Shown here: positions 3 to 31,218 of the stretch, piece after piece
Numbering within the stretch: position 1 is the stretch's first letter
Layout of the letters: each line of letters begins with the position of its first letter
From: Candidatus Omnitrophota bacterium
GTDB taxonomy: Bacteria; Omnitrophota; Gorgyraeia; Gygaellales; Profunditerraquicolaceae
DNA: 64,000 nt
Direction: 5' to 3'
Assembly: GCA_016208765.1 (NCBI GenBank)
Contig: JACQXK010000085.1
Coordinates: 4,814 to 68,813 of the forward strand
The notes under the pieces: model-generated
Databases searched by the model: none
The model's input: the letters and a program-made list of their open reading frames with translations, nothing else
Told to the model about the DNA's origin: nothing
Made by a program: the position numbers and the translations under genes

Positions 3-3000
3 TTAATAATTAATTTAATCTCTGCGTTAGAACAAATCACCGGTGTTGATGAAGCGGCAAATTTAGCAAGGAGTCATCTTGCCTCAGCTTTAAGCCAAGC
101 TTTATCCAATGATACCAATATCCACCTTGCCGTGGATCAAATAGACGGCTTGATTAGCATATTAAAACAAATTAATAATACTGATGAGACGGCAAATTTA
201 GCAAGGAGTAATCTTGCTTCAGCTTTAACACGAGCCTTATCCAATAATGCGAATATCCAGCTTACCGTGGATCAGATAGACGACTTGATTAGCATGTTAA
301 AACAAATTAATAATACTGATGAGGCGGCAAGAAAAGCAAGAAGTAATCTTGCTTCTTGCTTAGGGTGTGTTTTTATAAACAACAGGCAACTATTGAATAA
401 TGGGTTTTTATTAATAGGCTTCGATGCTTTATCGCAGTTTATCCAAACGAGGGATGATATAGAAAAAATAGGTAATGACCTGCTATGGGTTACTGACAGA
501 TGCCGGGGTGTTGAGAATCAAACAATGAATAGTTTAAAATCACTTTCTGCCATAATGAAAGAATATCCCCTTTTATTTAAAAGATTTATCAAGCCCGTTG
601 TGGCTAATCAAACTGTTGGCGCCTTTCTTTGTTTTCAAGAAGTAGTCAGGCTCTGGAGCAAAGATGCGATAAAGTCAGAAAGTGATCTGGATTTCTTAAG
701 AGAATTTATCCAGCAGAATCGGGTAAGAGCTTATGATTTGCTGAAAAATTTCATTGTGGAAGGCGTTAATAATGGGGTTATCCAGAAGCCGGTATCTGTG
801 GAAAAAGAAAAAATTAATGAATTCTTAAAAGACAACTCTTATGCCATTGTTGAGCTGTATAAAGCTTATAAAGATAATCCCCAAAATTTAAAAGCATTGG
901 TTAGTCGGTATGAAACTATTCATCAGGCAATCCTTAATGAAGATGCAGGTAAAGTTGAAAATGACCCATTCTTTTATGCTGTTTTAACGCATGTTTTTCC
1001 TCCCGAAACCACTGTTTCCAGGAACATGTATGGTGGAATTTATTCAAGTCGGCCTGACAGGCCTCAAGATACAGCAGGAATTCCTGATGATTTAACCAAA
1101 ACGCCTTTTTTTGCCGTCTCTACCGGACGATATATCTTAAAAGATCCCTCTAATCCATTAGATCAAACTCCCTGGATGACATTATTAGAAGTAATAAAGG
1201 AAGTTAATCCGCAGGAGAAAATTGTAGTTAATGAAAATGAGCTGGTGGAGATTGGCAGAAGGTTGCTTGAATATTGGCAAACAGGTGATCCAAATAGAGG
1301 GAGAAAGGAGCTGTTAAGGGAGCTCTATCGCTATTTCATTGCCAGCCGCGATATAAAGCTTCCAGATGCGCTTACCTCAATTAGAGAGATAATGGCTTTA
1401 AAAGAATTTGTTGGAGATACCTTGATGGATCTGATTGGCGACTGTACTGCCAAATACAGAGAGCAAAATCCGCAGCAATACCAAGCTTTGGTCAATAAGA
1501 TGTTTAAGGCAAGGTTAAATAATCCCAGAGGTAGTGCCAAGGCAATCCTTGGAGCAAGAAAAGCTCTTGCCAATAATCCAAATGAATTAAGAAATAGAGT
1601 TAAGAGTAATATCTTAAGAATAGAAGATGAATCAACCTTTGATATGCTCTGGGCTAAAATAGAGAACTTAACCGCTGAGAAAGAAATCACCAGAATCTTG
1701 GAAGAAATTACCTTTCAGGTCCAGCCAGGCAAAGAAGCGCTTATTATCTCCCAGCGCCTGCAGGGCTCTGAATATCAGGCAATGCAGAAAGAAGTATCAA
1801 CTAAATATGAATTCCAGGAAGGAAATAAGAAGGTTAGCTTGAGGATCTTACTCTCCAAGAGAAAAGCCCATGGTGTAGCTGGGTTAAATATGGGTGTTTG
1901 TGTGGCTCCTGATAAGGAATTATGGGGTAATCCTAACTTCTATAATGCCATTCTTTTTGATGAAAATGGTATTGCCCGTGGTGGTATGCATATACTGATA
2001 ATTGAAGATAGCGGAAAAAAATACCTTACTCTACCCGGGATTAACCCGCATACAACTCTTTTAATGAGAGTAGCAGCAGATGAAATTTACAGCAAGTTCG
2101 TATCCTATGCGCAGGCATTGGCAAAGCAGTTGGGTTGTGCAGGGGTCCTTATTCCGGAGAATCCCTCCATTCATTCCAATCGTTCGGAGATAAGGAGGGT
2201 AATTTCCGCGCGTAACTATGGAAAACAAACATTAAGTAAAATTCATCAATTTAGTTATTCACCCCATGGTTATCATTTTCAAACCTGTTTTTTTGTCCCG
2301 ATGTCCTCTGCGAGTTCTGCGGTTGAAAATGGAGTATTGACAGGCCCCAAGGTAGGAAAGTGGCATAGGGCAAATAGCAAATTGCAAAATCCAGATTCTT
2401 TGCTATCAGCCGAGGACTACGTTCCAGGCAGGGCCTCTTCGGCGGTGGAGAAAAAAACAGAAGCGAATACTAATTCTGCTAGGGGATTAGGGGACGGAGT
2501 AATTTTACGAAGCCAGGTGAAATATTATTTGTTGTCTTCCTTATCGCTTGCACTTCTTGGATTGGTAGTTTATCTAAATCCATTGAATTTATTTGGAACG
2601 GGATCGAGCTTTACGGCCGGAACTTACCCGCATTATATTAAACACCTTTTTAACCCTGCTGCGTCAACAGCTTTCTTCTGCTCAATAATATGGGGAATAG
2701 GTTTAGTCAAAGATTTTCTTAGGCCCGGTATCTTTATTAATAAAAGTAACGTGGACAGAGAATATGATGGCAGACGTTTTGTATTTAGAATAAGCTATCC
2801 CCTAATGACAATGTTTGAAATGGTGCGGGAGGTTGACAATGGAATAGATCTTATATTGACGTTAATTGGCGGTGCGTTAGGAATTGGTTGGGCCTATTAT
2901 ATTACATGGCGGATTGATAAAATATTGGGCTACACTCAAGATAAAGATAGCGCGTCTTCTACTTTGGGAAATCAATTGGATAATAATTCTGGTATTTCGA

Positions 3001-5093
3001 TTCCTCAACTAAATTTAGGGCAGGGCGAGGATGAAAATGGCGCGGAGGATGAAGTGGCGTCTTCGGCGGTAAAGAAAATTGTTCATGAGTCCCCATTGCT
3101 AAAACTCAGCGAAAAGGAAATCGCAGAAGCCAAGAAATTTATTGAGCAGCTTTCTGAAGGTAATCTATTTCTCCCGGATATTACCGAAGAATGGCGTTTA
3201 CAAGAAATTTCAGGAAGATATTTAAAGGCGCTTGAAGTTGAAAAACAAATTCTGCATGATAATTTAAATAAAGGAGGGGAAGGTACTTTCTCGCGGTATG
3301 GCGAACGTTACTTAGAAATTTCAAATTCAATATTTTTTCTACAATTATATTTTAGAGGAATTTTATTATCTTCTCGAGATCCTGCATATATAAGGGCATT
3401 AAAAATCTTACAGAAATTACTAGAAATAAATAGAATTGAAGGTAAGTATTATTTATTGGTTCCTAAGTCACTGCCACATCTGGGTTATCTATATACAATG
3501 GCGCAGAATACTTATCTTATGATTAGTGAGGATTTAATTTCTAGTTTAGATGATGATGGGCTTGCTTGGGTCATTGCTCATGAATTAGTACATTGCGAAA
3601 AGGGGCATTCAAGAAGCGGCCTACGTGCTATGGCATTATATGGAGATTATAGCCCTGACAATCTTGATTTTTGGTCAAATTTTCAACAATCACAAGAAAA
3701 AGAAGCGGATAGCATAGCTTTTGACTATGTCGTCAAGGCCGGATATAAAAGAGAATCTTGTATCAAGGCATTAGAAACGCTCGGAAGATTAGATATTGAA
3801 GCAGGTGCCTTTATTAAAAGTATCGTAGGCGAGAAAGCTGTTGAGCCTTCTGATAAGGTTCCCTTAAGGGCGCAGACTCATCCTCCGATACAAGAAAGAC
3901 TGGCTGTTTTAAGAAGAAAAATTTCCGCAGGCTCACCGATAACAGGCGACCGGGTACTGGCGACTGGTGGCGCGAGCGGCCCCTCGACTTCGGTCGGGGT
4001 AAACGCAGCCTCTTCGGCGGTTATAACACAGCAAGAGATAAAAGATGTAATTGAGGATATTAATAGGCTTTCAGGAAGAATTATATTTAAAGGTGAAGTA
4101 AGGGAACAGATTTCTAAAAAGATTTCCAGTATGGGTTTACTTAAAGGGAAAAGCTGTTTGGTGGTAGGGCCGGGTTTAAATGATTACTTGCCGGTAATGC
4201 TGTATAAGTTAGGATTGCAGTCTAGCATCATTGATACTAATGAATATGCAATACAGGAACAGAAGAAAATGTTTGCAAAATTTGGGATTGATGGAAGGAT
4301 TGATGTTTTTATTTCTTACGACGATGCTTGTTTGTTGGAGATGAGTAATAGTGTTTTTCCTATAGTCAGGCTTCTAAACTTTGATGGGGGGCGGATTTTT
4401 GTAAATCAGCACGCCCAAGTTTCGTTAGAGGATCAATATTCGCTAGAGGGCTCTGATTCTTTAAATTTCGCTAAGCTGATATATTATATAGATATGACGT
4501 TACAAGAATTTGGGGATATATATAAAGTAAAATTTTTTAAAGCTTCACAAGTGGATTTGGAGAATTTCCGTGTAGATGGCAGAGACTTGCGTGAACCAAG
4601 GCTTGGGGTAACTTTTGAGGCACATAAGAAATATTCCGCCGGCGCGGCGCCTGAGGCGGCCTCTTCGGCGGTGGAGATAAATAGCAAAGTTCAGGGACAG
4701 TCCCCTTTAAATGGCGCTGAAATAGCCCGGGCGGGGACAGTCCCTGTGAATACCGGTGGTATTGATTTTCGCGCGTTGCCTATCGTTACCCAAGCCATGA
4801 CTAATTTAGGCCTGCGAACTATTAGCTACGACTTAAGAGCTAAACTAAGTCATTTTGATGTGAATAAAGAATTAGCAGAAATTAACAGGCTTCTTGGCGC
4901 CGGCATTACGCCTTCCACTGACCGCCTCAAAGAATGCGCTCAGGCGGCATATTTATTTAATGGCCCTCCTGAAGAAAACGCTAAAATCCTCTCCTGCATT
5001 GCACAAGTGCTTAGGAAAGAGGAAGAGGCCTGTTGTAATACGGATCCTACCTTAAAAGATATTTTAGTAGTATTAGAGTCTGGAAGCGGTTAG
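3..5093 (+). CDS. Giant modular protein, 5'-truncated (frame is open from base 3; gene starts upstream of window). Has N-terminal 44-aa tandem repeats, central TM helices, an M48-type zinc metallopeptidase domain (HELVH ... EKEAD ... THPP), and 5 recurring ASSAV(E) linker motifs
   Basis: Same frame as the listed 132..5093 ORF has no stop back to base 3 and continues the repeat (..ANLARSHLASALSQALSNDTNIHLAVDQIDGLISILKQ). HExxH at 3579-3593, E-x-EAD about 3695-3710, THPP 3876-3887 match the M48 (HtpX/Ste24/BepA) signature. Hydrophobic helices about aa 790-900. Confidence 0.8.
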   Translation, partial: LIINLISALEQITGVDEAANLARSHLASALSQALSNDTNIHLAVDQIDGLISILKQINNTDETANLARSNLASALTRALSNNANIQLTVDQIDDLISMLKQINNTDEAARKARSNLASCLGCVFINNRQLLNNGFLLIGFDALSQFIQTRDDIEKIGNDLLWVTDRCRGVENQTMNSLKSLSAIMKEYPLLFKRFIKPVVANQTVGAFLCFQEVVRLWSKDAIKSESDLDFLREFIQQNRVRAYDLLKNFIVEGVNNGVIQKPVSVEKEKINEFLKDNSYAIVELYKAYKDNPQNLKALVSRYETIHQAILNEDAGKVENDPFFYAVLTHVFPPETTVSRNMYGGIYSSRPDRPQDTAGIPDDLTKTPFFAVSTGRYILKDPSNPLDQTPWMTLLEVIKEVNPQEKIVVNENELVEIGRRLLEYWQTGDPNRGRKELLRELYRYFIASRDIKLPDALTSIREIMALKEFVGDTLMDLIGDCTAKYREQNPQQYQALVNKMFKARLNNPRGSAKAILGARKALANNPNELRNRVKSNILRIEDESTFDMLWAKIENLTAEKEITRILEEITFQVQPGKEALIISQRLQGSEYQAMQKEVSTKYEFQEGNKKVSLRILLSKRKAHGVAGLNMGVCVAPDKELWGNPNFYNAILFDENGIARGGMHILIIEDSGKKYLTLPGINPHTTLLMRVAADEIYSKFVSYAQALAKQLGCAGVLIPENPSIHSNRSEIRRVISARNYGKQTLSKIHQFSYSPHGYHFQTCFFVPMSSASSAVENGVLTGPKVGKWHRANSKLQNPDSLLSAEDYVPGRASSAVEKKTEANTNSARGLGDGVILRSQVKYYLLSSLSLALLGLVVYLNPLNLFGTGSSFTAGTYPHYIKHLFNPAASTAFFCSIIWGIGLVKDFLRPGIFINKSNVDREYDGRRFVFRISYPLMTMFEMVREVDNGIDLILTLIGGALGIGWAYYITWRIDKILGYTQDKDSASSTLGNQLDNNSGISIPQLNLGQGEDENGAEDEVASSAVKKIVHESPLLKLSEKEIAEAKKFIEQLSEGNLFLPDITEEWRLQEISGRYLKALEVEKQILHDNLNKGGEGTFSRYGERYLEISNSIFFLQLYFRGILLSSRDPAYIRALKILQKLLEINRIEGKYYLLVPKSLPHLGYLYTMAQNTYLMISEDLISSLDDDGLAWVIAHELVHCEKGHSRSGLRAMALYGDYSPDNLDFWSNFQQSQEKEADSIAFDYVVKAGYKRESCIKALETLGRLDIEAGAFIKSIVGEKAVEPSDKVPLRAQTHPPIQERLAVLRRKISAGSPITGDRVLATGGASGPSTSVGVNAASSAVITQQEIKDVIEDINRLSGRIIFKGEVREQISKKISSMGLLKGKSCLVVGPGLNDYLPVMLYKLGLQSSIIDTNEYAIQEQKKMFAKFGIDGRIDVFISYDDACLLEMSNSVFPIVRLLNFDGGRIFVNQHAQVSLEDQYSLEGSDSLNFAKLIYYIDMTLQEFGDIYKVKFFKASQVDLENFRVDGRDLREPRLGVTFEAHKKYSAGAAPEAASSAVEINSKVQGQSPLNGAEIARAGTVPVNTGGIDFRALPIVTQAMTNLGLRTISYDLRAKLSHFDVNKELAEINRLLGAGITPSTDRLKECAQAAYLFNGPPEENAKILSCIAQVLRKEEEACCNTDPTLKDILVVLESGSG

Positions 5094-5243
5094 AGAGAAT
5101 TAGATTGCTTCGTCATCCTGCGTTGTGAAGCGACTCGCAATGACGAGACTGATGTTCCGCGCTCTTTAAAAACAAAAATAGGACATTTTAAAATTGTTAA
5201 AATAGTAAATTTTAATCTTGCTAGTACAAATTTTGAAAACTTC

Positions 5244-5272
5244 TTTACAAATTAAAATAACACCGCTATAAT
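5244..5272 (+). promoter_or_regulatory. sigma70-like promoter TTTACA-17-TATAAT upstream of hisG
   Basis: tttaca at 5244-5249, 17-nt spacer, tataat at 5267-5272; 47 nt upstream of hisG ATG. Confidence 0.5.
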
Positions 5273-5318
5273 ATTGCCTCGCAGAAGATTTTTCCATAAA
5301 TTTAAAAGGGAATTTATA

Positions 5319-6203
5319 ATGAATAAGAAAATACTTAAATTAGGTCTTCCTAAAGGAAGCCTGCAGGAATCCACCTTTAAGATGTTTAAAAAGGCCGGAT
5401 TTAATGTAAATTTATCCAACTCGCGTTCGTATTTTCCGTCGGTAGATGACACAGAGATTCAGGCGGTGCTGTTGCGCGCACAGGAAATGTCAAGATACGT
5501 GCAAGATGGTGCGCTTGACTGCGGGATCACCGGAAATGACTGGGTCCTGGAAAATAAATCAGATGTAGTTCGGGTAACCGACCTTGCTTATGCAAAACAG
5601 AGTTTGAATAAGGTGCGCTGGGTTTTGGCTGTGCCGCAGGATTCCGGAATTAAGTCAGTTAAGGACTTGCAGGGAAAACGCATTGCCACTGAATTAGTTA
5701 ATGTTACAAAAGAGTATTTTCAGAAAAATAAAGTTAAGGTTGAGGTAGAATTTAGCTGGGGCGCGACGGAAGTCAAGGTAAGCGGCGGCCTGGTGGATGC
5801 TATTGTAGAATTAACTGAAACCGGCTCAAGCCTGCGTGCAAATAAGCTGGTTGAAATTGCCACTCTCTGTGAATCCACAACACAATTTATTGCAAATAAA
5901 AATTCCTATAAAGACGCATGGAAAAAAGACAAGATGTCGCAGATCGCATTGCTTTTAAAAGGGGCGATTTCCGCCGAGGAGAAAGTCGGCCTGAAAATGA
6001 ATGTAAAAAAGCAGGATTTAAAAAAAGTGATTGCAGCCCTGCCTGCCTTAAGAAAGCCTACTATTTCCGGGCTATCTGACGACGGGTGGTGCGCTATTGA
6101 AACTATAATTGATGAAAAGATTGTGCGCGTGTTGATCCCTGAACTAAAGAAGCGCGGCGCACAGGGGATCATTGAGTATCCGTTGAATAAAGTGATTTAT
6201 TAA
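5319..6203 (+). CDS. hisG: ATP phosphoribosyltransferase, long form with C-terminal regulatory domain
   Basis: [15 protein letters not shown]... N-terminus typical of HisG; length about 295 aa; start chosen at internal Met 5319 rather than ORF-track 5274. Confidence 0.75.
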
Positions 6204-6225
6204 GGAGAAGTAAGCATGCCTTGTG

Positions 6226-6327
6226 GCCGTAAAAGAAAAAGACAAAAAATCAGGACCCATAAGAGGAAAAAGATGCGCCGCCGTCTGCGCCATCTGAAGA
6301 AGAGAGCTTGGGGTTAAACAGCAGGCG
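6226..6327 (+). CDS. 33-aa extremely basic mini-protein, bS22-like small ribosomal protein (MPCGRKRKRQKIRTHKRKKMRRRLRHLKKRAWG)
   Basis: ATG 6226 preceded by aaggag RBS; 33 codons to TAA 6325-6327; composition and pattern resemble bacterial bS22 (KKRRKRMSKKKHRKLLRR...). Below the 60-aa cutoff of the ORF track. Confidence 0.5.
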
Positions 6328-6341
6328 GGGTTAATTAAATT

Positions 6342-7319
6342 ATGCCTTCTTGCGGCAAGATATTCTTGACAAGGGTGTTTTTGTGCCTGCTTTTATCATG
6401 GGTCACAACAAGCGCCCTTGCTTTGGATAAAAAAGCTTCCTCCGGACTCACTCATTATATTATGGGTGTTGTTTATGAGGATCTTGGGGATATTGACGCA
6501 GCTATTGAAGAATATAAATCGGCCCTAAGGGCTGATTCTCAAAGCCCTTTAATCCACCTTAATCTCGCTGCAAGTTTAATCAAGAAGAATAATTTTGAGC
6601 AGGCGATTGATGAATTAAAAACAGCAGGCAAGCTTGATCCTGAGGCAGTTGAGCCGCATGCGATACTGGCTATTTTGTATACTTCGCAGGATAAATTGGA
6701 TTTAGCAGCAGCTGAATACGAGCTCGCTCTGAAAAACGCCTCTAAGCTGCAGCCTAAAAATATTGATATTTATAAAAGTCTTGCTTCAATTTATCTGCAG
6801 CAGGGAAAATATAAAGACGCAGAAGCAACTTACCGTCTGGTAATTGAGATCGCCCCAAAAGATGCCGAGGCTCATTTTTATCTGGGCAGCGTCTATTATG
6901 ATTTAAAGGATAAAGAAGCTGCCGAGAAAGAATTAAAGAAGGCAATTGAGTTAAAGCCGGATTATCATGAGGCGCTTAATTTCTTAGGCTATTTTTATGT
7001 AGAAGAAAACCGCAATCTGGCGCAGGCAGAAACAATGATCCGCAAGGCGATCGCGCTTGACCCTGAAAATGGAGCTTATGCAGACAGTTTGGGCTGGCTC
7101 TATTTCAAGAAAGGCAAGGTAAAAGAAGCGCTCAAGGAATTAGAGCGTGCTGGTTCGCTTTTGGCTGATCCGGTGATTTATGATCATTTAGGAGACGTGT
7201 ATTTAAAAACCGGCGATAAAGAAAACGCAAAGTTAAATTGGCAGAAATCCCTGCAGATGGACGCAAAGCAGGATAAGGTTAAAGAAAAATTAGAGAAGCT
7301 GGACAAGCTGGTTAAATAA
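6342..7319 (+). CDS. TPR-repeat protein with N-terminal signal peptide
   Basis: Hydrophobic N-terminus followed by multiple 34-aa TPR-like units (AIEEYKSALRADSQSP..., AEAHFYLGSVYYDLKD...). Confidence 0.7.
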   Translation: MPSCGKIFLTRVFLCLLLSWVTTSALALDKKASSGLTHYIMGVVYEDLGDIDAAIEEYKSALRADSQSPLIHLNLAASLIKKNNFEQAIDELKTAGKLDPEAVEPHAILAILYTSQDKLDLAAAEYELALKNASKLQPKNIDIYKSLASIYLQQGKYKDAEATYRLVIEIAPKDAEAHFYLGSVYYDLKDKEAAEKELKKAIELKPDYHEALNFLGYFYVEENRNLAQAETMIRKAIALDPENGAYADSLGWLYFKKGKVKEALKELERAGSLLADPVIYDHLGDVYLKTGDKENAKLNWQKSLQMDAKQDKVKEKLEKLDKLVK

Positions 7320-7322
7320 TAA

Positions 7323-8147
7323 ATGGCTGATTATTCTGTTGATAAAATAAAAGCATTAGAAGATAAAGCAAAACAAATCCGCAGGCTCATTGTATCAATG
7401 TTAGTCAAGGCCGGATCAGGCCATCCCGGAGGAAGCCTTTCCTCAACTGATTTAATTACTGTTTTATTTTATTCTGTGTTGCGGCATAATCCCAAGAACC
7501 CATCGTGGCCGGAACGCGACCGTTTTCATATGTCTAAAGGGCATTGCTGCCCGTTGTGGTATGCTGTGCTTGCTGATTCCGGATATTTTCCGCAGGAGAA
7601 ACTCTGGACATTGAGGCAATTAGGGTCAATGTTGCAGGGGCATCCTGACAGGCGCACCCCGGGAGTAGAGGTTTCAAGCGGGTCTCTTGGCCAGGGGCTC
7701 TCGGTGAGCCTTGGAATGAGCCTGGCTGCCCGGCTTGATAAACGCGATTCCCGGATATATGTCCTGATGGGAGACGGAGAAACTCAGGAGGGAAATATCT
7801 GGGAAGCAGCTATGGCTTGCAGCCATTATAAGTGCGATAATATTTGCGGTATCCTTGATTATAATGGTTTTCAGATTGATGGCAAAATTTGCCAGGTGAT
7901 GGCGCTTGAACCTTTGGCAGCAAAGTGGCAGGCATTTGGTTGGCATACGATTGAGATTAACGGGCATAATGTTAAAGAAATACTTTCTGCTTATGCTGAA
8001 GCGAAGATGGTCAAGGGAAAACCGACGATAATTATCGCCCATACAGTAAAAGGCAAGGGCGTTTCTTTTATGGAGAATGTCTGTGATTTTCATGGCCGCG
8101 CTCCGACAAAGGAAGAGGCGGAAAAGGCGTTAAAGGAACTGGAATAA
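7323..8147 (+). CDS. Transketolase, N-terminal (TPP-binding) subunit of split transketolase
   Basis: GHPGGSLS and GDGE(TQ)EG motifs; about 274 aa, typical split-tkt A subunit. Confidence 0.85.
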   Translation: MADYSVDKIKALEDKAKQIRRLIVSMLVKAGSGHPGGSLSSTDLITVLFYSVLRHNPKNPSWPERDRFHMSKGHCCPLWYAVLADSGYFPQEKLWTLRQLGSMLQGHPDRRTPGVEVSSGSLGQGLSVSLGMSLAARLDKRDSRIYVLMGDGETQEGNIWEAAMACSHYKCDNICGILDYNGFQIDGKICQVMALEPLAAKWQAFGWHTIEINGHNVKEILSAYAEAKMVKGKPTIIIAHTVKGKGVSFMENVCDFHGRAPTKEEAEKALKELE

Positions 8148-8150
8148 ATA

Positions 8151-8189
8151 TTGATTAATTGGTGAGTGGTGAGTAGGCCAATTAATCAA
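8151..8189. other. Perfect 12-bp inverted repeat (TTGATTAATTGG / CCAATTAATCAA) hairpin between the two transketolase subunit genes
   Basis: Left arm 8151-8162, right arm 8178-8189, 15-nt loop; no downstream T-run. Confidence 0.6.
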
Positions 8190-8206
8190 TTAACTAATTA
8201 ACCAAA

Positions 8207-9133
8207 ATGGAACAATTATATCAAAGAGATGTTTATGGCCAGTCACTTGTGGAATTAGGCAAGTTGAATAAGGATATTGTGGTTTTAGACGCGGATCTGT
8301 CCAGCTCTACCCGCACCGGATTATTTGCCAAGGAATTTCCTGAGCGTTTTTTTAATTTTGGTGTTGCTGAGCAGAACATGATTGCTTCTGCTGCAGGTTT
8401 TGCTGCAAGCGGAAAAATAGTTTTTGCTTCAACTTTTGCGATATTTGCCACCGGCCGCGCCTGGGATCAGGTAAGAAATTCAGTTTGTTACAGTAACCTT
8501 GATGTTAAAATTGTAGCCACGCATGCCGGAGTTTCCGTCGGGCCGGACGGAGCAAGCCATCAGGCGTTAGAAGATATTGCTTTGATGCGGGTGATCCCAA
8601 ATATCAAAATTATTGTGCCTTGCGACGGGCCGCAGGCGCGCGATGCGGTTATTGCCGCGGCAAACAATAAGGGCCCATTTTATGTGCGCTTGGGCAGGCC
8701 GAAAATCCCTACTATAGAAAATAAAGGCGAGTTTAAGTTGGGTAAAGCGCAGGTGTTAATTGACGGAACCGATGTTACTGTTGTTGCTTGCGGGATTATG
8801 GTGGCAGAGGCATTGGCAGCAGTTAATGAACTGGCAAAAAAAGGTATTAAAGCCCGCCTGATCAATGTGCATACTATACGGCCGTTAGATGCTGAGGTAA
8901 TTTTAAAAGCTGCAAAGGAAACCAAAGCAATAGTGGTTTGCGAGGAGCATTCAGTTATCGGTGGTTTAGCCTCCAGTATTGATGAAGTAGTGGCGGAAAA
9001 CTATCCGGTTAAGGTTGTGCGCGTGGGTGTGAGAAATAAATTCGGCCAGTCAGGCGATCCTTTAAGCCTTTTAAAAGAATATAACTTGACCAGCTCAGAT
9101 ATTGAAAAAGCGGTAATGTCCAGTATTGCTTGA
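8207..9133 (+). CDS. Transketolase, C-terminal (pyrimidine-binding) subunit
   Basis: FNFGVAEQNM, ATHAGVSVGPDGASHQ motifs typical of transketolase central/C-terminal domains. Confidence 0.85.
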   Translation: MEQLYQRDVYGQSLVELGKLNKDIVVLDADLSSSTRTGLFAKEFPERFFNFGVAEQNMIASAAGFAASGKIVFASTFAIFATGRAWDQVRNSVCYSNLDVKIVATHAGVSVGPDGASHQALEDIALMRVIPNIKIIVPCDGPQARDAVIAAANNKGPFYVRLGRPKIPTIENKGEFKLGKAQVLIDGTDVTVVACGIMVAEALAAVNELAKKGIKARLINVHTIRPLDAEVILKAAKETKAIVVCEEHSVIGGLASSIDEVVAENYPVKVVRVGVRNKFGQSGDPLSLLKEYNLTSSDIEKAVMSSIA

Positions 9134-9148
9134 GATTTTAATATAGTA

Positions 9149-10060
9149 ATGAATAAATCCCTTCCTCAAGAATCCTGCCCCAAGAATAAAATTATTTCAA
9201 TAAAAGCTTACGCTAAAGTTAATCTGTTTTTAGCGGTATTGAATAAACGTAAAGATAATTTCCATAATCTAAACACGCTCTTTGGGCGCATTGACCTTGC
9301 AGACAGGATTATTTTAAGATCGCTGCCTGCTAATGAAATCAAGGTTGTTTGCGCGCATGGTTCTGTGCCGGAGGATGAATCAAATCTTTGTTTTAAGGCA
9401 GCCAAGCTTTTGCAGCAGAGATGTAAGTGCAATTGCGGCGTTGAGATAAAGATTGATAAACGCATCCCTGTCGGCGCTGGTTTAGGAGGGGGCTCAAGTG
9501 ATGCTGCAGCAACCCTTATTGGCCTAAATAAGCTTTGGAGGTTAAACCTTAACCAAAAGAAATTAGCAAATTTGGCCAAGAAAATCGGCTCTGATGTGGC
9601 TTTTTTTATGTACGGCCTCTCTTTTGCCCAAGGCCTCTCCAGAGGAGAAAAAATCCGCAAGCTCCCTCAACTTGTTAAATTGCGCCTTTGGTTTATTCTG
9701 GTTGTGCCTGAAATACACGTTTCTACGCCTTTAATTTATCGTAAATTTGATGAACTTCTTGGGTTGACAAAGCCAGTTTGTAATGTTAAAATATTAAATT
9801 CAGCGTTAAGAAAAGACGGGCCTTTTGCTGTCAAAAGCCTTTTGTTTAATAGCCTGGAAGCGGTGACCACCCGGATCTATCCAGAAGTTAAACTTGTGAA
9901 AAAAATGCTCTCTGATTTGGGCTTGGAATCTATTCTTATGTCCGGAAGCGGTCCGGCGGTGTTTGGTTTGGTTTCTTCAAGAAAGGAGGCCGTAACCTTA
10001 GGCGAAAAGCTTAGGGGGCAGAAAATGCCGTGGCAGATTTTTGTCACGCGGACAATTTAA
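9149..10060 (+). CDS. ispE: 4-diphosphocytidyl-2-C-methyl-D-erythritol kinase
   Basis: KAYAKVNLFL ... PVGAGLGGGSSDAAA GHMP-kinase motifs. Confidence 0.8.
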   Translation: MNKSLPQESCPKNKIISIKAYAKVNLFLAVLNKRKDNFHNLNTLFGRIDLADRIILRSLPANEIKVVCAHGSVPEDESNLCFKAAKLLQQRCKCNCGVEIKIDKRIPVGAGLGGGSSDAAATLIGLNKLWRLNLNQKKLANLAKKIGSDVAFFMYGLSFAQGLSRGEKIRKLPQLVKLRLWFILVVPEIHVSTPLIYRKFDELLGLTKPVCNVKILNSALRKDGPFAVKSLLFNSLEAVTTRIYPEVKLVKKMLSDLGLESILMSGSGPAVFGLVSSRKEAVTLGEKLRGQKMPWQIFVTRTI

Positions 10061-10128
10061 CCCGGATCAATTTGTGTTTTTAATGAAAGAACGGGTTTAA
10101 CGCTGATGCATTTTAAGGAGGTAGCAAC

Positions 10129-10539
10129 ATGGAGATAACCGAGGTTAGGGTGGTCCTGAAAGATTCTCCTGATAAGAAATTAAAGGCATACGCTACTGTA
10201 ACTTTTGAAAACGCTTTTGTGGTAAGGAACATTAAAGTAATTGAGGGCGCAACCGGGTTGTTTATAGCAATGCCGTCAAGGAAAATAAAACAAGGTTGCC
10301 CTAAATGTAATTTTAAGAATGAATTGCGCAGTAGATATTGCAATCAATGCGGTTCGCAGCTTCCGGTGAACATACGCGCGCCTTCTGCTGAACCAAGCGG
10401 CGCAACTCAGTTAGAGCATAAAGATATTGCCCATCCGATAACGCAGTCTTTCAGGGAATATCTGCAAAAAAGGGTATTAGACGCATACGAAGAAGAGAAG
10501 AAAAAGGGTGTTTCTTCCGGTTCTTCATTTGATGAATAA
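10129..10539 (+). CDS. spoVG: SpoVG-family protein carrying a zinc-ribbon insertion of about 45 aa (CPKC...CNQC)
   Basis: MEITEVRVVLKDSPDKKLKAYATVTFENAFVVRNIKVIEGATGLFIAMPSRK ... DIAHPI SpoVG core with CxxC-x13-CxxC inserted in the loop that is short in canonical SpoVG. Confidence 0.75.
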   Translation: MEITEVRVVLKDSPDKKLKAYATVTFENAFVVRNIKVIEGATGLFIAMPSRKIKQGCPKCNFKNELRSRYCNQCGSQLPVNIRAPSAEPSGATQLEHKDIAHPITQSFREYLQKRVLDAYEEEKKKGVSSGSSFDE

Positions 10540-16973: not shown

Positions 16974-17026
16974 GTATTAGTAAAAAAATATTGATTTCCT
17001 TCAGGCCTTCTTATATAATACCAATA

Positions 17027-19381
17027 ATGCGATACCTAAAAGTTTTCTTTTTTGCATTTTCATTAATACTTACCGCTAACCTTTTTGCTTTTGCCCAGGA
17101 TAGCTCGCAAAGCCTTCCATTACAAGAAGCTTCTGCTGCGGATCTTCCCGCAAAAACAGTTACCGCTATTGAAATAATAGGTAACAAATCCACCAGCACC
17201 AATATAATCCTTTCTAAAATGAAGACTCACATTGGAAGCCCTTATCAGGAAAATGTGATTAGCGATGACCTGAAGCGTTTATTTTTGCTGGGGTTTTTTA
17301 GCGACATAAAGATTGATACCCAGGATTATAAGGATGGAGTAAAAGTCATTGTGCGCGTTACAGAAAGGCCGATTATTGAAACAATAAATTTTGCCGGTAT
17401 TACTCGCATTCGCATGAAGGATGAAAAATTAAAAGAGGAGTTGAAGTCTAAAGAAAAACAATATCTTGATTATCCCAGCCTTGCCGAGGATGTGCAAAAA
17501 CTAAGAAAGATGTATGAGAAAATCGGTTTTTCTCAGGTGCAGATTAATTATCAGGTGGATGTGGACAAGCAGACCAATAAAGCTAAAGTTCAATTTAATG
17601 TAGTTGAGGGGCAGAAGATCAGGATTAAACATATTGATTTTGAAGGCAACTCCGCATTTAGCGATAAGAAACTTTTGAGATTAATTAAAACCCGCTGGGC
17701 ATGGTTGTTCAACGCGGGCGTGCTTAAAGATGAGGTTTTAAAAGAAGATGTTGAGCGTGTTAAGTCGTTTTATCGCAGGCAAGGATATGCTGATGTAGCG
17801 GTTGATTCCGAGGTTAAACAGGATCCCAAAAAGCCGTATTTGCTGTATGTGATTATTCGTATTCAGGAAGGGAAGAAGTATTTAGTGGGTAATGTTTCTA
17901 TTCAGGGGAACAAGGAAATTCCTGAAAAGCTGATTATTAGCAAGCTTAGCGAAGCTATACCCGGCAAGGTTTACAGTGAAGATGCAATGAAATTTGATGT
18001 GGCAGGTATTCAGAGTTTATATTTTGACCGTGGCTATATTTCCTGCCAGGTGCAGGAAGCAACTTCTTTGAATTCATCAAGCGGCAGGGTTGATATTACC
18101 TATACAATTGCTGAAAATGAAATTGCTTATGTGGACAAAATAAAAATCCGCGGCAACATTAAAACAAAAGATATTGTTATCCGCCGGGAATTAAGGATCG
18201 CTCCCGGAGACAAATTTGACGGGGATAAGCTGCGCCGTAGCAAAGAGAGGCTGGCTAATTTAGGGTTTTTTGACGAGATCAGCTATGATACTGAGGATAC
18301 AAAAGAGCCGGACAAAAAAGACCTGATCGTTGATGTTAAAGAATCTAAGACAGGCGCCTTTAGCTTCGGCGGCGGATATAGCACAGTGGATCAATTTGTC
18401 GGGTTTGTGGAAATTGAACAAAAGAATTTTGACTGGCGCAATTGGCCTTATTTTACCGGAGGAGGGCAGGATATTAAGCTGCGCGCTTCTTTTGGCAGCA
18501 TTACCCAGTATTTTGATTTAAGTTTTACTAACCCGTGGATCTTTGATTATCCGGTTTCTTTTGGTTTTGACACATATAAGCGTGAACATAAAAGAGATAC
18601 CGATGTTGGTTATGGATATGACGAGAGCGTCTTGGGTGGAGATTTGCGCCTGGGCTACCAGCTAACCGATTTTATAAATACAGATTTAACTTATCGCTGC
18701 GATCAGATTAAAATTTCTAATATTTCATCAGATGCTACTATTGATTTACAGCAGGAACAAGGGAAGAATACAATAAGCAGTGTTACGCCAGCAGCAAGCT
18801 ATGATACAAGAGATAATGTTTTTGATCCTCATAAAGGAGATTTGCTTACGGGCTCAGTTGAGTTTGCCGGCGGCCCTTTAAGCGGGAATAAAGATTATTG
18901 GAAATTTTATGGTTCTGCATCACACTATATCCCATTACCATGGAATTCTGTTTTTGAAATAAAAGGCCGGGCAGGGGTCGGAGCTCCTTATGATGATACC
19001 GCGCGCATACCTATCTATGAAAGATTCTTCGCCGGCGGCGCCTACACTATCAGAGGTTATGAGGAAAGAAAAGTCGGCCCAATTGACCCTGTTTCAAGGG
19101 ACCCCCTGGGTGGCGACGCTATGCTTATCGGTAATCTTGAATACACGTATCCTTTGTTCAGTTTCTTAAAATTGGCGGCATTTTACGATGTTGGTAATGT
19201 TTGGGAGAGTAAAAAAGATTTCGGGAAAAACGGTTACAAATCGGGTATTGGTTTTGGTGTCAGGATCAAGACGCCTCTTGGCCCGATAAGGCTTGATTAT
19301 GGTTTCCCGATGAACAAAGAGCCGGGAGATGATGAAATAAAAGGCGGCCGTCTGCACTTTAGCGCAAGCCACGGTTTCTAA
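17027..19381 (+). CDS. bamA: Outer membrane protein assembly factor BamA (POTRA repeats plus C-terminal beta-barrel)
   Basis: Signal peptide, repeated POTRA-like segments, C-terminal aromatic-rich barrel ending ...HFSASHGF; followed by skp-lpxD as in many diderms. Confidence 0.8.
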   Translation: MRYLKVFFFAFSLILTANLFAFAQDSSQSLPLQEASAADLPAKTVTAIEIIGNKSTSTNIILSKMKTHIGSPYQENVISDDLKRLFLLGFFSDIKIDTQDYKDGVKVIVRVTERPIIETINFAGITRIRMKDEKLKEELKSKEKQYLDYPSLAEDVQKLRKMYEKIGFSQVQINYQVDVDKQTNKAKVQFNVVEGQKIRIKHIDFEGNSAFSDKKLLRLIKTRWAWLFNAGVLKDEVLKEDVERVKSFYRRQGYADVAVDSEVKQDPKKPYLLYVIIRIQEGKKYLVGNVSIQGNKEIPEKLIISKLSEAIPGKVYSEDAMKFDVAGIQSLYFDRGYISCQVQEATSLNSSSGRVDITYTIAENEIAYVDKIKIRGNIKTKDIVIRRELRIAPGDKFDGDKLRRSKERLANLGFFDEISYDTEDTKEPDKKDLIVDVKESKTGAFSFGGGYSTVDQFVGFVEIEQKNFDWRNWPYFTGGGQDIKLRASFGSITQYFDLSFTNPWIFDYPVSFGFDTYKREHKRDTDVGYGYDESVLGGDLRLGYQLTDFINTDLTYRCDQIKISNISSDATIDLQQEQGKNTISSVTPAASYDTRDNVFDPHKGDLLTGSVEFAGGPLSGNKDYWKFYGSASHYIPLPWNSVFEIKGRAGVGAPYDDTARIPIYERFFAGGAYTIRGYEERKVGPIDPVSRDPLGGDAMLIGNLEYTYPLFSFLKLAAFYDVGNVWESKKDFGKNGYKSGIGFGVRIKTPLGPIRLDYGFPMNKEPGDDEIKGGRLHFSASHGF

Positions 19382-25193: not shown

Positions 25194-26207
25194 TCAAAAT
25201 CTCAATTTATTTACTGCTACTTTTATATGTTCTTTACTAAGGTGGCTATAAATCATCGTGGTTGTAATTGAAGAGTGCCCTAAAAGATCTTTCACGGTGT
25301 TTAAATCTACTCCATTCATAACTAAATGAGAAGCGAAGGTGTGTCTTAGTGTATGCCAACCAATACCCATTAATTTCCCTATTTTCAGGATCCTTTTGAA
25401 TACCCGTCTTTGATTGGTGGTGTCAAAACAAGGCCCTTTTTCCTTGCGTAGAGGAACCAAGATAGATCTAAGCTTATCATGTAAGGGTATTACCCTGAAT
25501 TTCTTTGATTTAGTGGTAAAACCCTCTTTATTCTTTACGGTGATCTGTTTTCGTGTGAAATCTACATCTGACCATTCCAAGCTGAATAGTTCCGCTTGGC
25601 GCATACCGGTATATATAGCAGTGGCAATAACTGGATATAAGACAGTATCCCTGTCTGTATAAATATCAGGGTTCTGCGCAGCAGTAAGTAATTCTTCTAT
25701 TTCTTCTCTGCTTAAAAATCTTTTTGGGTTTAATGGTATCTTATACTTTTTTACATTTCGTAGTGGATTATCAGTGACGTATTGCATTTTAACGGCCCAG
25801 TTAAGCCAAGCCTTAAGATTTATGATTGTGTTGTTTGCTTCATAAAGGCTGATTTTGTCGTTATTTATCCTATGGTTTAGATATTCCTGCAATTTGTTTT
25901 CAGAAATTCTATTAACAGTGAGAGTTGCCGCCCAAGACAAGAATCTTTTTATACGAGATTCTGTGCCAAGATTAACATCTCTTACACGGCGATGTTCATT
26001 GAATTGTTGATATTCTTCAAGAAGAGAAGAACAGTTTCTTTGATTATCTGGGGCAATGTTATTGCCTTCAATTAACGATTGATCTTGTTTATTCTTGAGA
26101 TATATAGCTTGTGAGCGGTCTTTAGTTTTTAAACTCCTGCGATAAAGCTTTCCATTCTTATAAAAAGCAAGCCAGTATATTTGATCGCGACGATATAAAT
26201 GTGACAT
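25194..26207 (-). CDS. int: Tyrosine site-specific integrase
   Basis: C-terminal catalytic motifs HTLRHTFASHLV...LLGHSSITTTMIYSHL (R..HxxR..Y). Confidence 0.9.
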   Translation of the reverse strand: MSHLYRRDQIYWLAFYKNGKLYRRSLKTKDRSQAIYLKNKQDQSLIEGNNIAPDNQRNCSSLLEEYQQFNEHRRVRDVNLGTESRIKRFLSWAATLTVNRISENKLQEYLNHRINNDKISLYEANNTIINLKAWLNWAVKMQYVTDNPLRNVKKYKIPLNPKRFLSREEIEELLTAAQNPDIYTDRDTVLYPVIATAIYTGMRQAELFSLEWSDVDFTRKQITVKNKEGFTTKSKKFRVIPLHDKLRSILVPLRKEKGPCFDTTNQRRVFKRILKIGKLMGIGWHTLRHTFASHLVMNGVDLNTVKDLLGHSSITTTMIYSHLSKEHIKVAVNKLRF

Positions 26208-29564: not shown

Positions 29565-29800
29565 TGAATTTTTGGGTTCCGCGGCATAGATATGAGTTAT
29601 TAAACTGGATATTGGGAGTATATCCGCAAGAAAAAAGCAAATTTAAGTGCATGAAAACAAATCAACTTTACGCAATCTATTACAAGTTAAGAAAGGACAA
29701 TATCTCGCTTGTTGGCGGCCATAACGAGGCTGGTGAGCCGGACGCATGGTGCGGCGGTAGGTCTAACGACACGACGCCGCAGATATCTAAATTTATATGA
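29564..29800 (+). CDS. Hypothetical protein
   Basis: ORF only. Confidence 0.35.
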   Translation: MNFWVPRHRYELLNWILGVYPQEKSKFKCMKTNQLYAIYYKLRKDNISLVGGHNEAGEPDAWCGGRSNDTTPQISKFI

Positions 29801-31218
29801 AACCGTTATTTAAGCATCAAAAAGAAGCTTTAGATTTTATCGTTTCAAATAATGGATTTGGGGCATTGTTTCATGAAGTGGGATGCGGGAAAACAAGGAC
29901 TGCTCTTGAGATATTTAGTCATTACAAAAGATTAGATCCTGAGCTTAAACTTTTTGTTATTTGTCCATTGTCCCTTATTAACTCTGCATGGGGAGAGGAC
30001 ATAAAGCAGTTTACCTGTTTTAATTATCGCAATTGTCATGACGAAACGATTGAGCTGCGCAAAGATACTGATATTTATATTATAAACTTTGAATCATTGA
30101 TAAGCGAAAACAAAATCAAACAACTTCATAAGATGATTAATTTCTCGAAAGTAATGTGTGTTATTGACGAATCTTCAAAGATGAAAAACCATAAAGCAAG
30201 GACGACAAAAACCCTGTTGTCACTTAGGAATTACTTCAATTTTCGCATAATTATGTCAGGAACTCCGGCGCCTAACTGCGAGACAGAATACTGGGCCCAG
30301 ATTAATTTTATTAAGCCCGGAATCGTGCATGAGAAGTTTTATCCATTTAGATATTTTTACTTTCATCTTGAGAGAGAGCGTAATGGCAAGCAAGAATTTA
30401 CTTCCGGCCAAATTTACAGCAAGCTTGCGGCGCAACAGATCTTTCAGCGCGGTTGGCATTACGATATAACTACGCAGAAAAGACAGTTGCTTATGGATAA
30501 AATCTCGCCATATTGCCATTATGCGCGCAAGGCTGAGTGTTTGGATTTACCGGAGCAAATGGATGAAGTCAGATTAGTTGATATGGGTAAAAAACAAGCA
30601 TCTGTTTATAACTCCATGAAACGTGACTTAATTGCTGAGATTCAAAATTCTTTTGTAGTGGCGCAAGTAGCTTTGGCAAAAATTATGAAATTGCGGCAGA
30701 TAACTTCCGGGTTTGCGATAGACGAATCCGGAGAAACTATAATTATTGGAGAAAATCCTAAATTACAGGAGCTAAAAGATGTATTGGAGGAGGCAGGAAA
30801 ACAGCAGGTCATTATATGGTGCCAGTTTCAACACGAGATTAGACAGATTAAAGATTTATTGGGAGATAAGGCTGTTACTCTTTACGGTGAAACTAAAGAT
30901 AAAGATGATTCAATTACGGCGTTTAAGAATGGAAGCGCGCAGTACCTTATTGCGCATCCTAAAAGCGCCGGGCACGGATTGACATTTGTGAATTGCAGTT
31001 TACAGGTGTTTTATAGCCTTGATTATTCATGGGAGTTATATGAACAGGCGCGCGGCCGGATCCACAGAGCCGGGCAGGTCAACAAATGCACTTATGTTCA
31101 CTTGCTTTGTAAGGGGACTATTGACGAAGAGATTCTTAATGTCTTGCGTAATAAAAAAGACGCAACGGAGATATTGTATAGGATGGTGCAAGGAAATTTA
31201 GCGGAGGTAGGGAAGTGA
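29797..31218 (+). CDS. SNF2/DEAD-like helicase
   Basis: Walker A EVGCGKT, DExx VIDESSKMKN, C-terminal helicase motifs (HPKSAGHGLTF, ARGRIHRAGQ). Confidence 0.8.
   Translation: MKPLFKHQKEALDFIVSNNGFGALFHEVGCGKTRTALEIFSHYKRLDPELKLFVICPLSLINSAWGEDIKQFTCFNYRNCHDETIELRKDTDIYIINFESLISENKIKQLHKMINFSKVMCVIDESSKMKNHKARTTKTLLSLRNYFNFRIIMSGTPAPNCETEYWAQINFIKPGIVHEKFYPFRYFYFHLERERNGKQEFTSGQIYSKLAAQQIFQRGWHYDITTQKRQLLMDKISPYCHYARKAECLDLPEQMDEVRLVDMGKKQASVYNSMKRDLIAEIQNSFVVAQVALAKIMKLRQITSGFAIDESGETIIIGENPKLQELKDVLEEAGKQQVIIWCQFQHEIRQIKDLLGDKAVTLYGETKDKDDSITAFKNGSAQYLIAHPKSAGHGLTFVNCSLQVFYSLDYSWELYEQARGRIHRAGQVNKCTYVHLLCKGTIDEEILNVLRNKKDATEILYRMVQGNLAEVGK

Follow-up and report, generated by a model that had tools for sequence, protein, structure and literature searches.

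The Omnitrophota, a widespread group of ultra-small bacteria that probably live as predators or episymbionts, are known for very long multi-enzyme proteins. These long and giant proteins combine methyltransferases, kinases/ATPases, acetyltransferases, peptidases, signal peptides and/or transmembrane (TM) helices, and under names such as "Archaeovorins" they and related proteins have been proposed to serve as effectors in predation or episymbiosis (West-Roberts et al., 2023, bioRxiv 10.1101/2023.11.21.568195; Nielsen and Lui, 2026, bioRxiv 10.64898/2026.06.07.730766; Seymour et al., 2023, PMC10066038). Their cleavage is treated as an open question and the cleavage points are unknown (West-Roberts et al., 2023). 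Here we analyze a modular protein encoded at the start of a 64,000-nucleotide (nt) stretch of contig JACQXK010000085.1 from a Candidatus Omnitrophota bacterium (assembly GCA_016208765.1; the whole stretch is referred to as the window). Five copies of the pentapeptide ASSAV lie at the junctions of its modules. Like the published giants it comes from the same phylum and is a very long multi-enzyme open reading frame (ORF). Unlike them, it reaches at least 3.3 thousand amino acids (kaa) compared to 10-147 kaa, and it shares a scaffold of an N-terminal head and a C-terminal domain (CTD) with its relatives. The three reports on long Omnitrophota proteins describe no shared head, CTD, junction motif or codon conservation in such a motif. 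A literature text search with ASSAV, ASSPV and GGIDF likewise returned nothing relevant (only optical character recognition noise), and no paper pairing Omnitrophota with the word "polyprotein" was found. Long modular Omnitrophota proteins are already published; the new elements are a scaffolded, motif-punctuated subfamily and the codon conservation of its motif.

Several better described systems share parts of this architecture. MARTX toxins carry several independent effector modules per polypeptide with linkers between them, and with them comes the concept of proteolytic release. They are characterized by RTX repeats, leave the cell by type I secretion and carry a cysteine protease domain (CPD) that is activated by inositol hexakisphosphate and cuts after Leu. 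No CPD, RTX/glycine-rich repeats or type I signal were matched at E<=1 using Pfam and NCBIfam, either in the window fragment or in the longer database protein that contains it (P0004), and the M48 peptidase module found here is dispensable across the family. A MARTX-like identity, which an earlier note on this DNA had suggested, is not supported. Polymorphic toxins (CdiA with its VENN motif, Rhs with PxxxxDPxGL) likewise use a short motif, conserved at the nucleotide level, that marks the point of module exchange between paralogues. In these toxins a single motif is followed by a variable C-terminal toxin and then by an immunity gene, whereas here the center is variable and the ends are constant, the motif occurs up to 10 times per protein, hisG lies downstream, and no other part of the protein is as conserved as its C-terminus. 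Cellulosomal enzymes join varied catalytic modules to one small C-terminal domain by Ser/Pro-type linkers, and this likeness suggests that the CTD could be a docking or sorting module. It is not a Ca-binding dockerin, since it is an all-helical bundle with conserved Cys and no Pfam dockerin match, and the linker core is a defined pentapeptide instead of a low-complexity PT run. Finally, viral polyproteins consist of a long ORF with several functional units and short conserved junction peptides between them. There, the protease is universally encoded in the same polyprotein and cleavage is experimentally defined; the Omnitrophota family has no universal in-cis protease, and its cleavage is putative. 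MARTX toxins, polymorphic toxins, cellulosomal enzymes and viral polyproteins are functional analogies only.

The reading frame is open from base 3 to a stop codon at 5091-5093 and yields a 1,696-amino acid (aa) fragment, whose 5' end lies beyond the window. P0004 is 100% identical across all 1,696 aa, and the window ORF encodes the C-terminal portion of an Omnitrophota protein of at least 3,301 aa, in line with the earlier reading of an ORF longer than 1,690 aa that continues upstream. An independent assembly, Logan contig SRR12113402, reproduces window positions 2818-10342 with two single-nucleotide polymorphisms, neither of them inside the ORF. Since this contig and P0004 agree with the window ORF, an assembly artefact is excluded. 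The ORF contains the following features:

3..401, + strand: 45-aa alpha-helical tandem repeats (Tandem Repeats Finder period 135 nt, 2.3 copies, 87% matches; direct repeat), extending upstream in P0004
417..2303, + strand: module A, a conserved orphan domain in which KRKAHG (1857-1874), GVCVA (1893-1907), GGMH, PGINP and IHSN (2169-2180) are invariant
2310..2324, + strand: junction copy 1, SSASSAVE, encoded by GCGAGTTCTGCGGTT
2325..2432, + strand: 36-aa spacer between tandem junctions, with no recognizable domain and no family match
2433..2447, + strand: junction copy 2, GRASSAVE, encoded by GCCTCTTCGGCGGTG
2448..3056, + strand: membrane module with three hydrophobic segments (2529-2585, 2664-2720 and 2850-2906; Kyte-Doolittle peaks 1.85, 1.40 and 1.59)
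3057..3071, + strand: junction copy 3, EVASSAVK, encoded by GCGTCTTCGGCGGTA
3072..4007, + strand: M48 zinc-metallopeptidase cargo module (PF01435; HELVH 3579-3593, EKEAD 3696-3710, THPP 3876-3887) with the linker SAGSPITGDR...GVNA from 3924
4008..4022, + strand: junction copy 4, NAASSAVI, encoded by GCCTCTTCGGCGGTT
4023..4658, + strand: module E, Rossmann-like and possibly methyltransferase/aminopropyltransferase-like (VVGPGLND 4161-4184; homology to relatives)
4659..4673, + strand: junction copy 5, EAASSAVE, encoded by GCCTCTTCGGCGGTG
4674..4748, + strand: flexible linker from the last junction to the CTD, with a predicted local distance difference test score (pLDDT) <50 for residues 1-27 of the AlphaFold model of 4674-5090
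4749..5090, + strand: CTD, with GGIDFRALPIVTQ at 4755-4793 and then a helical bundle that contains conserved Cys; the end reads ...LKDILVVLE

The five ASSAV copies start at aa 770, 811, 1019, 1336 and 1553, at the five sites given in the earlier note, and composition predicts 0.003 copies. No further ASSAV occurs in any of the six frames of the whole 64 kb. At the DNA level, the core TCTTCGGCGGT is common to four of the five copies. The full 18-mer GCCTCTTCGGCGGTGGAG is present twice (2433 and 4659) and GCCTCTTCGGCGGT three times, and none of these three strings was found elsewhere in the 64-kb window on either strand. The near-identical GC-rich string noted before is thus real, although four copies share its core and not three. 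Copy 1 encodes the same peptide by other codons (GCG AGT TCT GCG GTT), and selection at the peptide level is therefore indicated. Clearly Gly/Ala/Pro-rich, GC-rich linkers surround junctions 3-5 only; the embedding in Gly/Pro/Ala/Ser linkers described earlier holds for these three and is not clear at junctions 1 and 2. The 40 nt around copy 3 and the region around copy 5 share 78% identity. P0004 contains three instances of a longer linker cassette, S[A/V]GSPITGDR-x-TG-x(10-14)-AASSAV, namely at window positions 3924-4022 and at aa ~170-204 and ~830-864. This cassette includes a GSPI element that resembles the SSP[V/I/L] motif form of other lineages. The stretch between copies 1 and 2 had been taken for a 45-aa mini-module, but it measures 36 aa between the motifs and 41 aa from start to start. 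It is bracketed, together with both copies, by a 14-nt A/T-rich inverted repeat (2285-2298 and 2447-2460, 93% complementary), which is probably due to chance; the flanking 100-nt stretches gave no significant fold. The exact 18-mer returned 122 matches in metagenomes, almost all of them chance hits in GC-rich contigs, and the sole true family gene among them was one locus (L091). We also considered internal translation starts after the motifs and rejected them: no start codon is suitably spaced from the Shine-Dalgarno-like GGTGGAG, which is present in only 2 of the 5 copies.

A word-indexed search with the full fragment returned only 3 proteins, and an exhaustive phmmer/HMMER search with aa 770-1696 found the rest: 758 cluster representatives passed E<=1e-3, and 338 passed E<=1e-10. 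In nearly all of the best 150 of the 758 representatives, the match is confined to the last ~110 aa of the ORF and invariably falls at the extreme C-terminus of the matching protein. The proteins that bear this CTD range from 126 to several thousand aa in length. The domain itself (~115 aa) starts with GGIDFRxLPIVTQ and ends with ...CC.T.P.LKDILVVLE. A hidden Markov model (HMM) of 135 members matches aa 1583-1695 of the window protein with E=3e-46, and the same HMM detects no second family member in the window. An AlphaFold2 model of the CTD has six helices (pLDDT 68) and its structural matches are generic helical bundles only. The element GGID acts as a boundary motif itself, with 198 copies versus 3.3 expected, and extra GGID[S/G/P]S copies lie upstream of some CTDs (P0014, P0031, P0032, P0178 and P0190).

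Of the best 150 matches, 58 also share a ~340-aa N-terminal head with the motifs FRPLHLRY, FWVNLRPD, LTRPWIVP, YKATLKVMLE, LRQVYYSLILAQWFKAR and RSYFSGG at fixed positions. In family members the head is preceded by the leader M..K..KILSFLLC..LIFQQTGFAQ, which by eye resembles a Sec signal peptide. P0004, which is truncated at its N-terminus and starts after the leader and the first ~210 aa, retains ~140 aa from the C-terminal end of the head, with 55-78% identity to other members. Neither head nor CTD was matched by a Pfam or NCBIfam model, and every public name in the family is "hypothetical protein". Between head and CTD, the members carry a wide range of cargo domains, including methyltransferases, Metallophos, NDK, Fic, GNAT, HATPase_c, CheR, CN_hydrolase, M23 peptidase, FHA, HPr and protein kinase. 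A genome scan with the CTD pattern confirmed 103 loci, and nearly all of the 80 listed among these 103 are in Candidatus Omnitrophota metagenome-assembled genomes (MAGs). The MAG JACROS01 has at least 7 family loci in one genome and, among the loci listed, contains the closest relative (68% CTD identity). The family is a large, unannotated, multi-paralogue superfamily that is found almost only in Omnitrophota, and its members are built from a hydrophobic leader, a ~340-aa head, a variable string of enzyme cargo and a ~115-aa helical CTD. The neighbors of family genes at 79 loci represent housekeeping synteny. A CutA - DsbD - thioredoxin-like cluster lies downstream of a family member at about 8 loci (L019 8081-9589, L028 10860-11537 and ~6 more); it is probably conserved synteny as well, though conserved cysteines are present in the CTD.

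In this clade, ASSAV represents a junction motif that is used family-wide, x-S-S-[A/P]-[V/I/L]; the residues that precede it are small and those that follow are polar or charged. The clade uses ASSAV, ASSAI and ASSAL, and most other lineages use ASSPV, SSSPL or GSSPI. In the relatives the motif follows the head directly, stands between cargo modules and precedes the CTD by 5-25 residues. It closes a flexible linker, and the next module starts right behind it. Family ORFs contain 0.93 motifs per 1,000 aa and neighbor genes of the same contigs 0.05, an approximately 20-fold enrichment. The distance between motifs is domain-sized (median 302 aa, interquartile range 184-470); intervals below 60 aa form a minor class (26/163) to which the 36-aa spacer of the window belongs. 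The two serines are invariant and [A/P]-[V/I/L] is kept across divergent genomes with CTDs that are only 38-50% identical. The motif is also present in proteins of more than 5,000 aa that share cargo but have neither head nor CTD (six copies in P0023, four in P0140), where the flanks are charged.

P0004 carries 10 motifs, which coincide with the edges of homology blocks, as expected for a modular protein with ASSAV at its boundaries. The end of the head at ~138 lies next to a motif at 142, the M48 block (2617-2920) has motifs at 2624 and 2941, and module E (2946/8-3145/52) has motifs at 2941 and 3158; the CTD starts at ~3150. The M48 block reappears with 85% identity in P0005, where it sits among entirely different neighbor modules and is flanked by ASSAV and TSSAV. 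Family-wide, the endpoints of internal BLAST high-scoring segment pairs are 2.5-fold enriched within 5 aa of a motif. These data bear out the shuffling of modules at the linkers that had been proposed before: modules, along with their linkers, were duplicated and exchanged between paralogues at the motif joints, and the M48 peptidase is one such shuffled cargo module. Among 32 full-length members with head and CTD, none contains M48, one contains M23 and 14 contain the motif, and the M48 module is matched by only ~4 of the best 150 representatives.

The conservation at the nucleotide level, first noticed in the linkers of the window, generalizes to the family. Codons were counted for 115 motifs in 80 ORFs. 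Ser at motif position 2 is encoded by TCT in 52% of cases versus 24% in the background (p=4e-11), and Ser at position 3 by TCG in 43% versus 9% (p=8e-22). At position 4, Ala uses GCG in 48% versus 20% and Pro uses CCG in 68% versus 29% (p=2e-10), and Val at position 5 uses GTG in 43% versus 18%. The preference TCT-TCG-[G/C]CG-GTG holds in 19 of the 19 genomes with at least 2 motifs (sign test p=2e-6). Although no Ser codon is rarer in family ORFs than TCG (4-16% background), it accounts for 17-100% at position 3 per genome. Across 1.1 Mb of family loci we counted 17 instances of the core TCTTCG[G/C]CGGT, against ~1 by an equal-base estimate, and the core always lies in frame within xSS[A/P]V. 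True junctions in the window, in MAG JACROS01 and in the loci L011 and L091 use GC[C/G]TCTTCGGCGGTG, whereas incidental matches to the pattern inside folded domains use other codons. Three possible causes were rejected. A Ser-[A/P] codon-pair preference does not account for the bias, which persists against the same dipeptides outside motifs (42% vs 16%, p=9e-12). A broad tract of GC-biased gene conversion is not seen either, the GC content at third codon positions (GC3) being raised only inside the 15-nt motif (0.48 vs 0.35-0.40 in the flanks). Local RNA secondary structure is likewise inconspicuous, with z-scores of -0.03 to -0.85 around the window copies. The phylum-wide codon preference is real, but we leave it without an explanation. 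We would guess that the ribosome pauses at the boundary on two successive NCG codons, or that linker copies undergo short-patch gene conversion.

We favor the reading that the head-cargo-CTD family carries an ASSAV-type junction mark, that modules are swapped at these joints and that the mark is read in trans, and we give this reading as a whole a probability of roughly 0.55. The motif would be a recognition mark on an exported polypeptide, and it appears to be read at the protein level because the peptide is kept with different codons in copy 1 and across deep lineages with Ala or Pro at position 4. The likeliest reader would be a trans-acting processing protease that separates the modules after Sec export, which would make the protein a bacterial polyprotein; an enzyme that modifies the linkers would be a less likely reader. 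We consider a trans protease likeliest because the proteins have Sec-type leaders and the motif, located in their flexible linkers, separates enzymes that would plausibly act independently. The embedded M48 peptidase cannot be the general processing enzyme responsible, because the full-length members include 14 with the motif and none with M48, and because the M48 block is itself motif-flanked cargo. Autoproteolysis by N-O acyl shift (SEA-type G/SVVV, pyruvoyl S/S) was set aside, by inference only, given that the motif is in a disordered linker and not in a strained fold.

A number of observations weigh against this reading. Cleavage at the motif may occur, but the motif is a candidate site only and sequence cannot decide the matter. 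A strict motif is found within 45 aa upstream of the CTD in only 37 of 128 members; many have relaxed forms before the CTD (SGSPI, SSSPA, SASPV) and some have none. Several long members carry no copy of the motif at all, which is awkward for an obligatory processing site. No protease, transporter, glycosyltransferase or modifying enzyme is a conserved neighbor of the family genes at the 79 loci. The AlphaFold model of the head (pLDDT 46) is unusable, and roles of head and CTD in export, anchoring, targeting or docking are conjecture. Furthermore, the three predicted TM segments would place a membrane between the head on one side and the M48 module, module E and the CTD on the other, and they therefore complicate a simple picture of export followed by cleavage.

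The alternative that survives best is a passive linker maintained by descent. Here the motif would be the best-preserved core of Ser/Ala/Pro-rich linkers, copied along with the modules and without a function of its own. That the motif is degenerate and absent from many members fits this idea, as does the failure to find a partner enzyme. In this clade whole linkers are homologous, as in G(D/E)xN(G/A)xA(D/P)E(A/V)ASSAV(K/G)K and SAGSPITGDR...GVNAASSAV. Descent alone does not readily explain why the serines are invariant and [A/P]-[V/I/L] persists across divergent genomes at ~20-fold enrichment, why copy 1 holds the peptide with other codons, or why the motif recurs between charged flanks, instead of low complexity, in the very large proteins without head and CTD. 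Neutral descent should also have saturated the synonymous sites, in conflict with a codon preference in 19 of 19 genomes. We therefore regard a passive linker as unlikely.

The codon data bear on two further possibilities, both of which we judge distinctly unlikely as the full account. In the first, the motif is a recombination joint at the DNA level, with the string GCY TCT TCG SCG GTN selected as a short homology for in-frame exchange of cassettes among paralogues, comparable to the demarcation motifs of polymorphic toxin genes. Codon-level conservation that exceeds that of the peptide speaks for such a joint, together with identical 12-18-mers across different genes and species, block boundaries at the motifs and multiple paralogues per genome. 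A homology of 11-18 nt is, on the other hand, below the usual minimum for RecA-dependent exchange, and GC3 is raised only in 15 nt with no conversion tract in the flanks. The peptide is also kept where the DNA differs, in copy 1 and between AGC- and TCT-type ASSPV codons, and the core never occurs out of frame or outside family ORFs, which ties the DNA to the peptide. In the second, two consecutive rare NCG codons (TCG, then GCG or CCG) where each module starts would slow the ribosome for folding or co-translational export of the preceding module. Such a pause is compatible with the other readings. The over-use of the rare TCG at position 3 in every genome with at least 2 motifs points in this direction, as do the confinement of the bias to the motif and the lack of an RNA structure that could account for it. 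Position 2, however, favors TCT, the commonest Ser codon, so that the motif is not a simple cluster of rare codons, and a pause does not require a conserved peptide.

Somewhat less probable still is a post-translational modification sequon, in which the Ser-Ser pair would be O-glycosylated or otherwise modified to stiffen or protect the linkers without cleavage. In other bacteria, general O-glycosylation systems modify Ser where exported proteins have flexible, Ala/Pro-rich regions, and the linkers of cellulosomes carry glycans as well; these parallels agree with a motif that sits in disordered linkers and in proteins with Sec-type leaders. The family genes have no linked glycosyltransferase or oligosaccharyltransferase at the 79 loci, the codon bias would be left over, and sequence cannot tell a modification site from a protease site. 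A self-processing polyprotein in which the embedded M48 cleaves in cis at ASSAV in a MARTX-like manner, as first proposed, is very improbable: the M48 domain is genuine, with HExxH and ExxAD intact, and the motifs do lie at module boundaries, but the motif is family- and phylum-wide and punctuates many members without M48, the block is itself shuffled between motifs, CPD and RTX features were not found, and given the three TM segments M48 may sit across the membrane from most junctions.

The whole fragment and each of its modules were compared to Pfam, NCBIfam and Protein Data Bank sequences, and only M48 was significant. A module-by-module HMM check thus upholds the peptidase and offers no curated family for the other modules. 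The match to Peptidase_M48 (PF01435) covers aa 1163-1305 with E=4.8e-14 and 53.0 bits, far above the gathering cut-off of 20.3 (47.1 bits in the whole-protein scan), and the zinc-site motifs of the predicted peptidase are intact (HELVH, aa 1193-1197; EKEAD, aa 1232-1236). We take the Glu of EKEAD to be the third zinc ligand, as in other M48 proteins. The module thus resembles the M48 family (HtpX, Ste24, BepA/LoiP) in passing the Pfam threshold and in combining HExxH with the downstream Glu of E-x-x-A-D. It differs in being embedded in a multi-kaa protein and in being only distant from the named subfamilies; scores with the NCBIfam models HtpX, LoiP and Lit are far under their cut-offs. Its relatives are the block in P0005 and a standalone protein of 446 aa (P0006, 47% identity), which terminates in GGIDL followed by a different tail.

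The membrane module between motifs 2 and 3 has hydrophobic segments at aa 843-861, 888-906 and 950-968 by Kyte-Doolittle hydropathy, within the two to four helices foreseen earlier. Module E has no Pfam match at E<=10 in the window protein. Relatives with 27-35% identity (P0026, P0049, P0084, P0139 and others) align from 1-3 aa past motif 4 to just before motif 5, and they weakly match BpsA_C (E=1.4e-5) and Methyltransf_23 (E=1.3e-3), both below cut-off. Its VVGPGLND differs from the canonical methyltransferase motif I of the GxGxG type. A Rossmann-like nature of this module is accordingly backed by weak Rossmann/methyltransferase-type signals in relatives and not by a direct Pfam match.

Module A (aa 139-767 of the query) is the sole part matched by the three proteins of the word-indexed search, P0001-P0003, with 52, 48 and 26% identity. 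The homology ends just before ASSAV copy 1, and two of the three proteins terminate 10-25 residues later; everything beyond motif 1 is therefore an addition relative to these proteins. The gene contexts of P0001 and P0002 contain no downstream modules. The module comprises ~630 aa with conserved Cys, His and Ser and forms the C-terminal domain of the otherwise unrelated large proteins P0001-P0003, one of which apparently comes from a high-GC organism, as judged by its Ala/Gly/Arg-rich sequence. It has no significant match in the databases named above and looks like an uncharacterized enzyme. The 135-nt tandem repeat ahead of it (window 27-355, 82-87% identity) encodes 45-aa helical repeats that continue for several hundred residues upstream in P0004.

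The modular gene is set in an ordinary bacterial chromosome. hisG follows directly downstream, and the other genes of this setting are a TPR protein, a split transketolase, an ispE-like kinase, tRNA-Gln, a glmU-like gene, prs, L25, pth, dnaB and BamA. The transketolase is encoded as two genes for the N-terminal and C-terminal halves (7323-8147 and 8207-9133). The BamA homologue at 16991-19381 combines an Omp85 barrel with five POTRA domains and indicates a diderm envelope for the host. A prophage-like or integrated mobile element occupies approximately 24300-52000. It encodes a tyrosine integrase (25194-26207, minus strand), a SNF2-family helicase (29797-31218), a DUF3854 protein (33768-36248), a run of orphan ORFs at 40.5-48.3 kb and a phage major capsid protein (48699-49688). 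GC content is lower over much of this region (0.35-0.38), and GC skew climbs from ~36 kb. A virus or mobile element with an Omnitrophota host is interesting in its own right.

For the Omnitrophota, the motif is a concrete and testable candidate segmentation point at module boundaries in hundreds of proteins. It is of putative function and not universal in the family, and it gives a handle on the open question of how the giant proteins are cleaved. The conservation of synonymous codons across the phylum in a five-codon motif points to an extra constraint, be it translation, recombination or nucleic-acid recognition. If the motif is only a linker core, its biological interest would be modest, but its value for domain parsing would stay: the superfamily definition can be used to cut dark-matter proteins into domain-sized units for structure prediction and for a catalogue of candidate effectors. 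A more far-reaching version is that xSS[A/P][V/I/L] is a general segmentation signal of long and giant Omnitrophota proteins, cut after export by a dedicated trans protease, with codons that impose a coupled pause. We consider it unlikely; if true, it would supply the cleavage points that are missing according to West-Roberts et al. (2023) and would define a new head/CTD scaffold for effector delivery.

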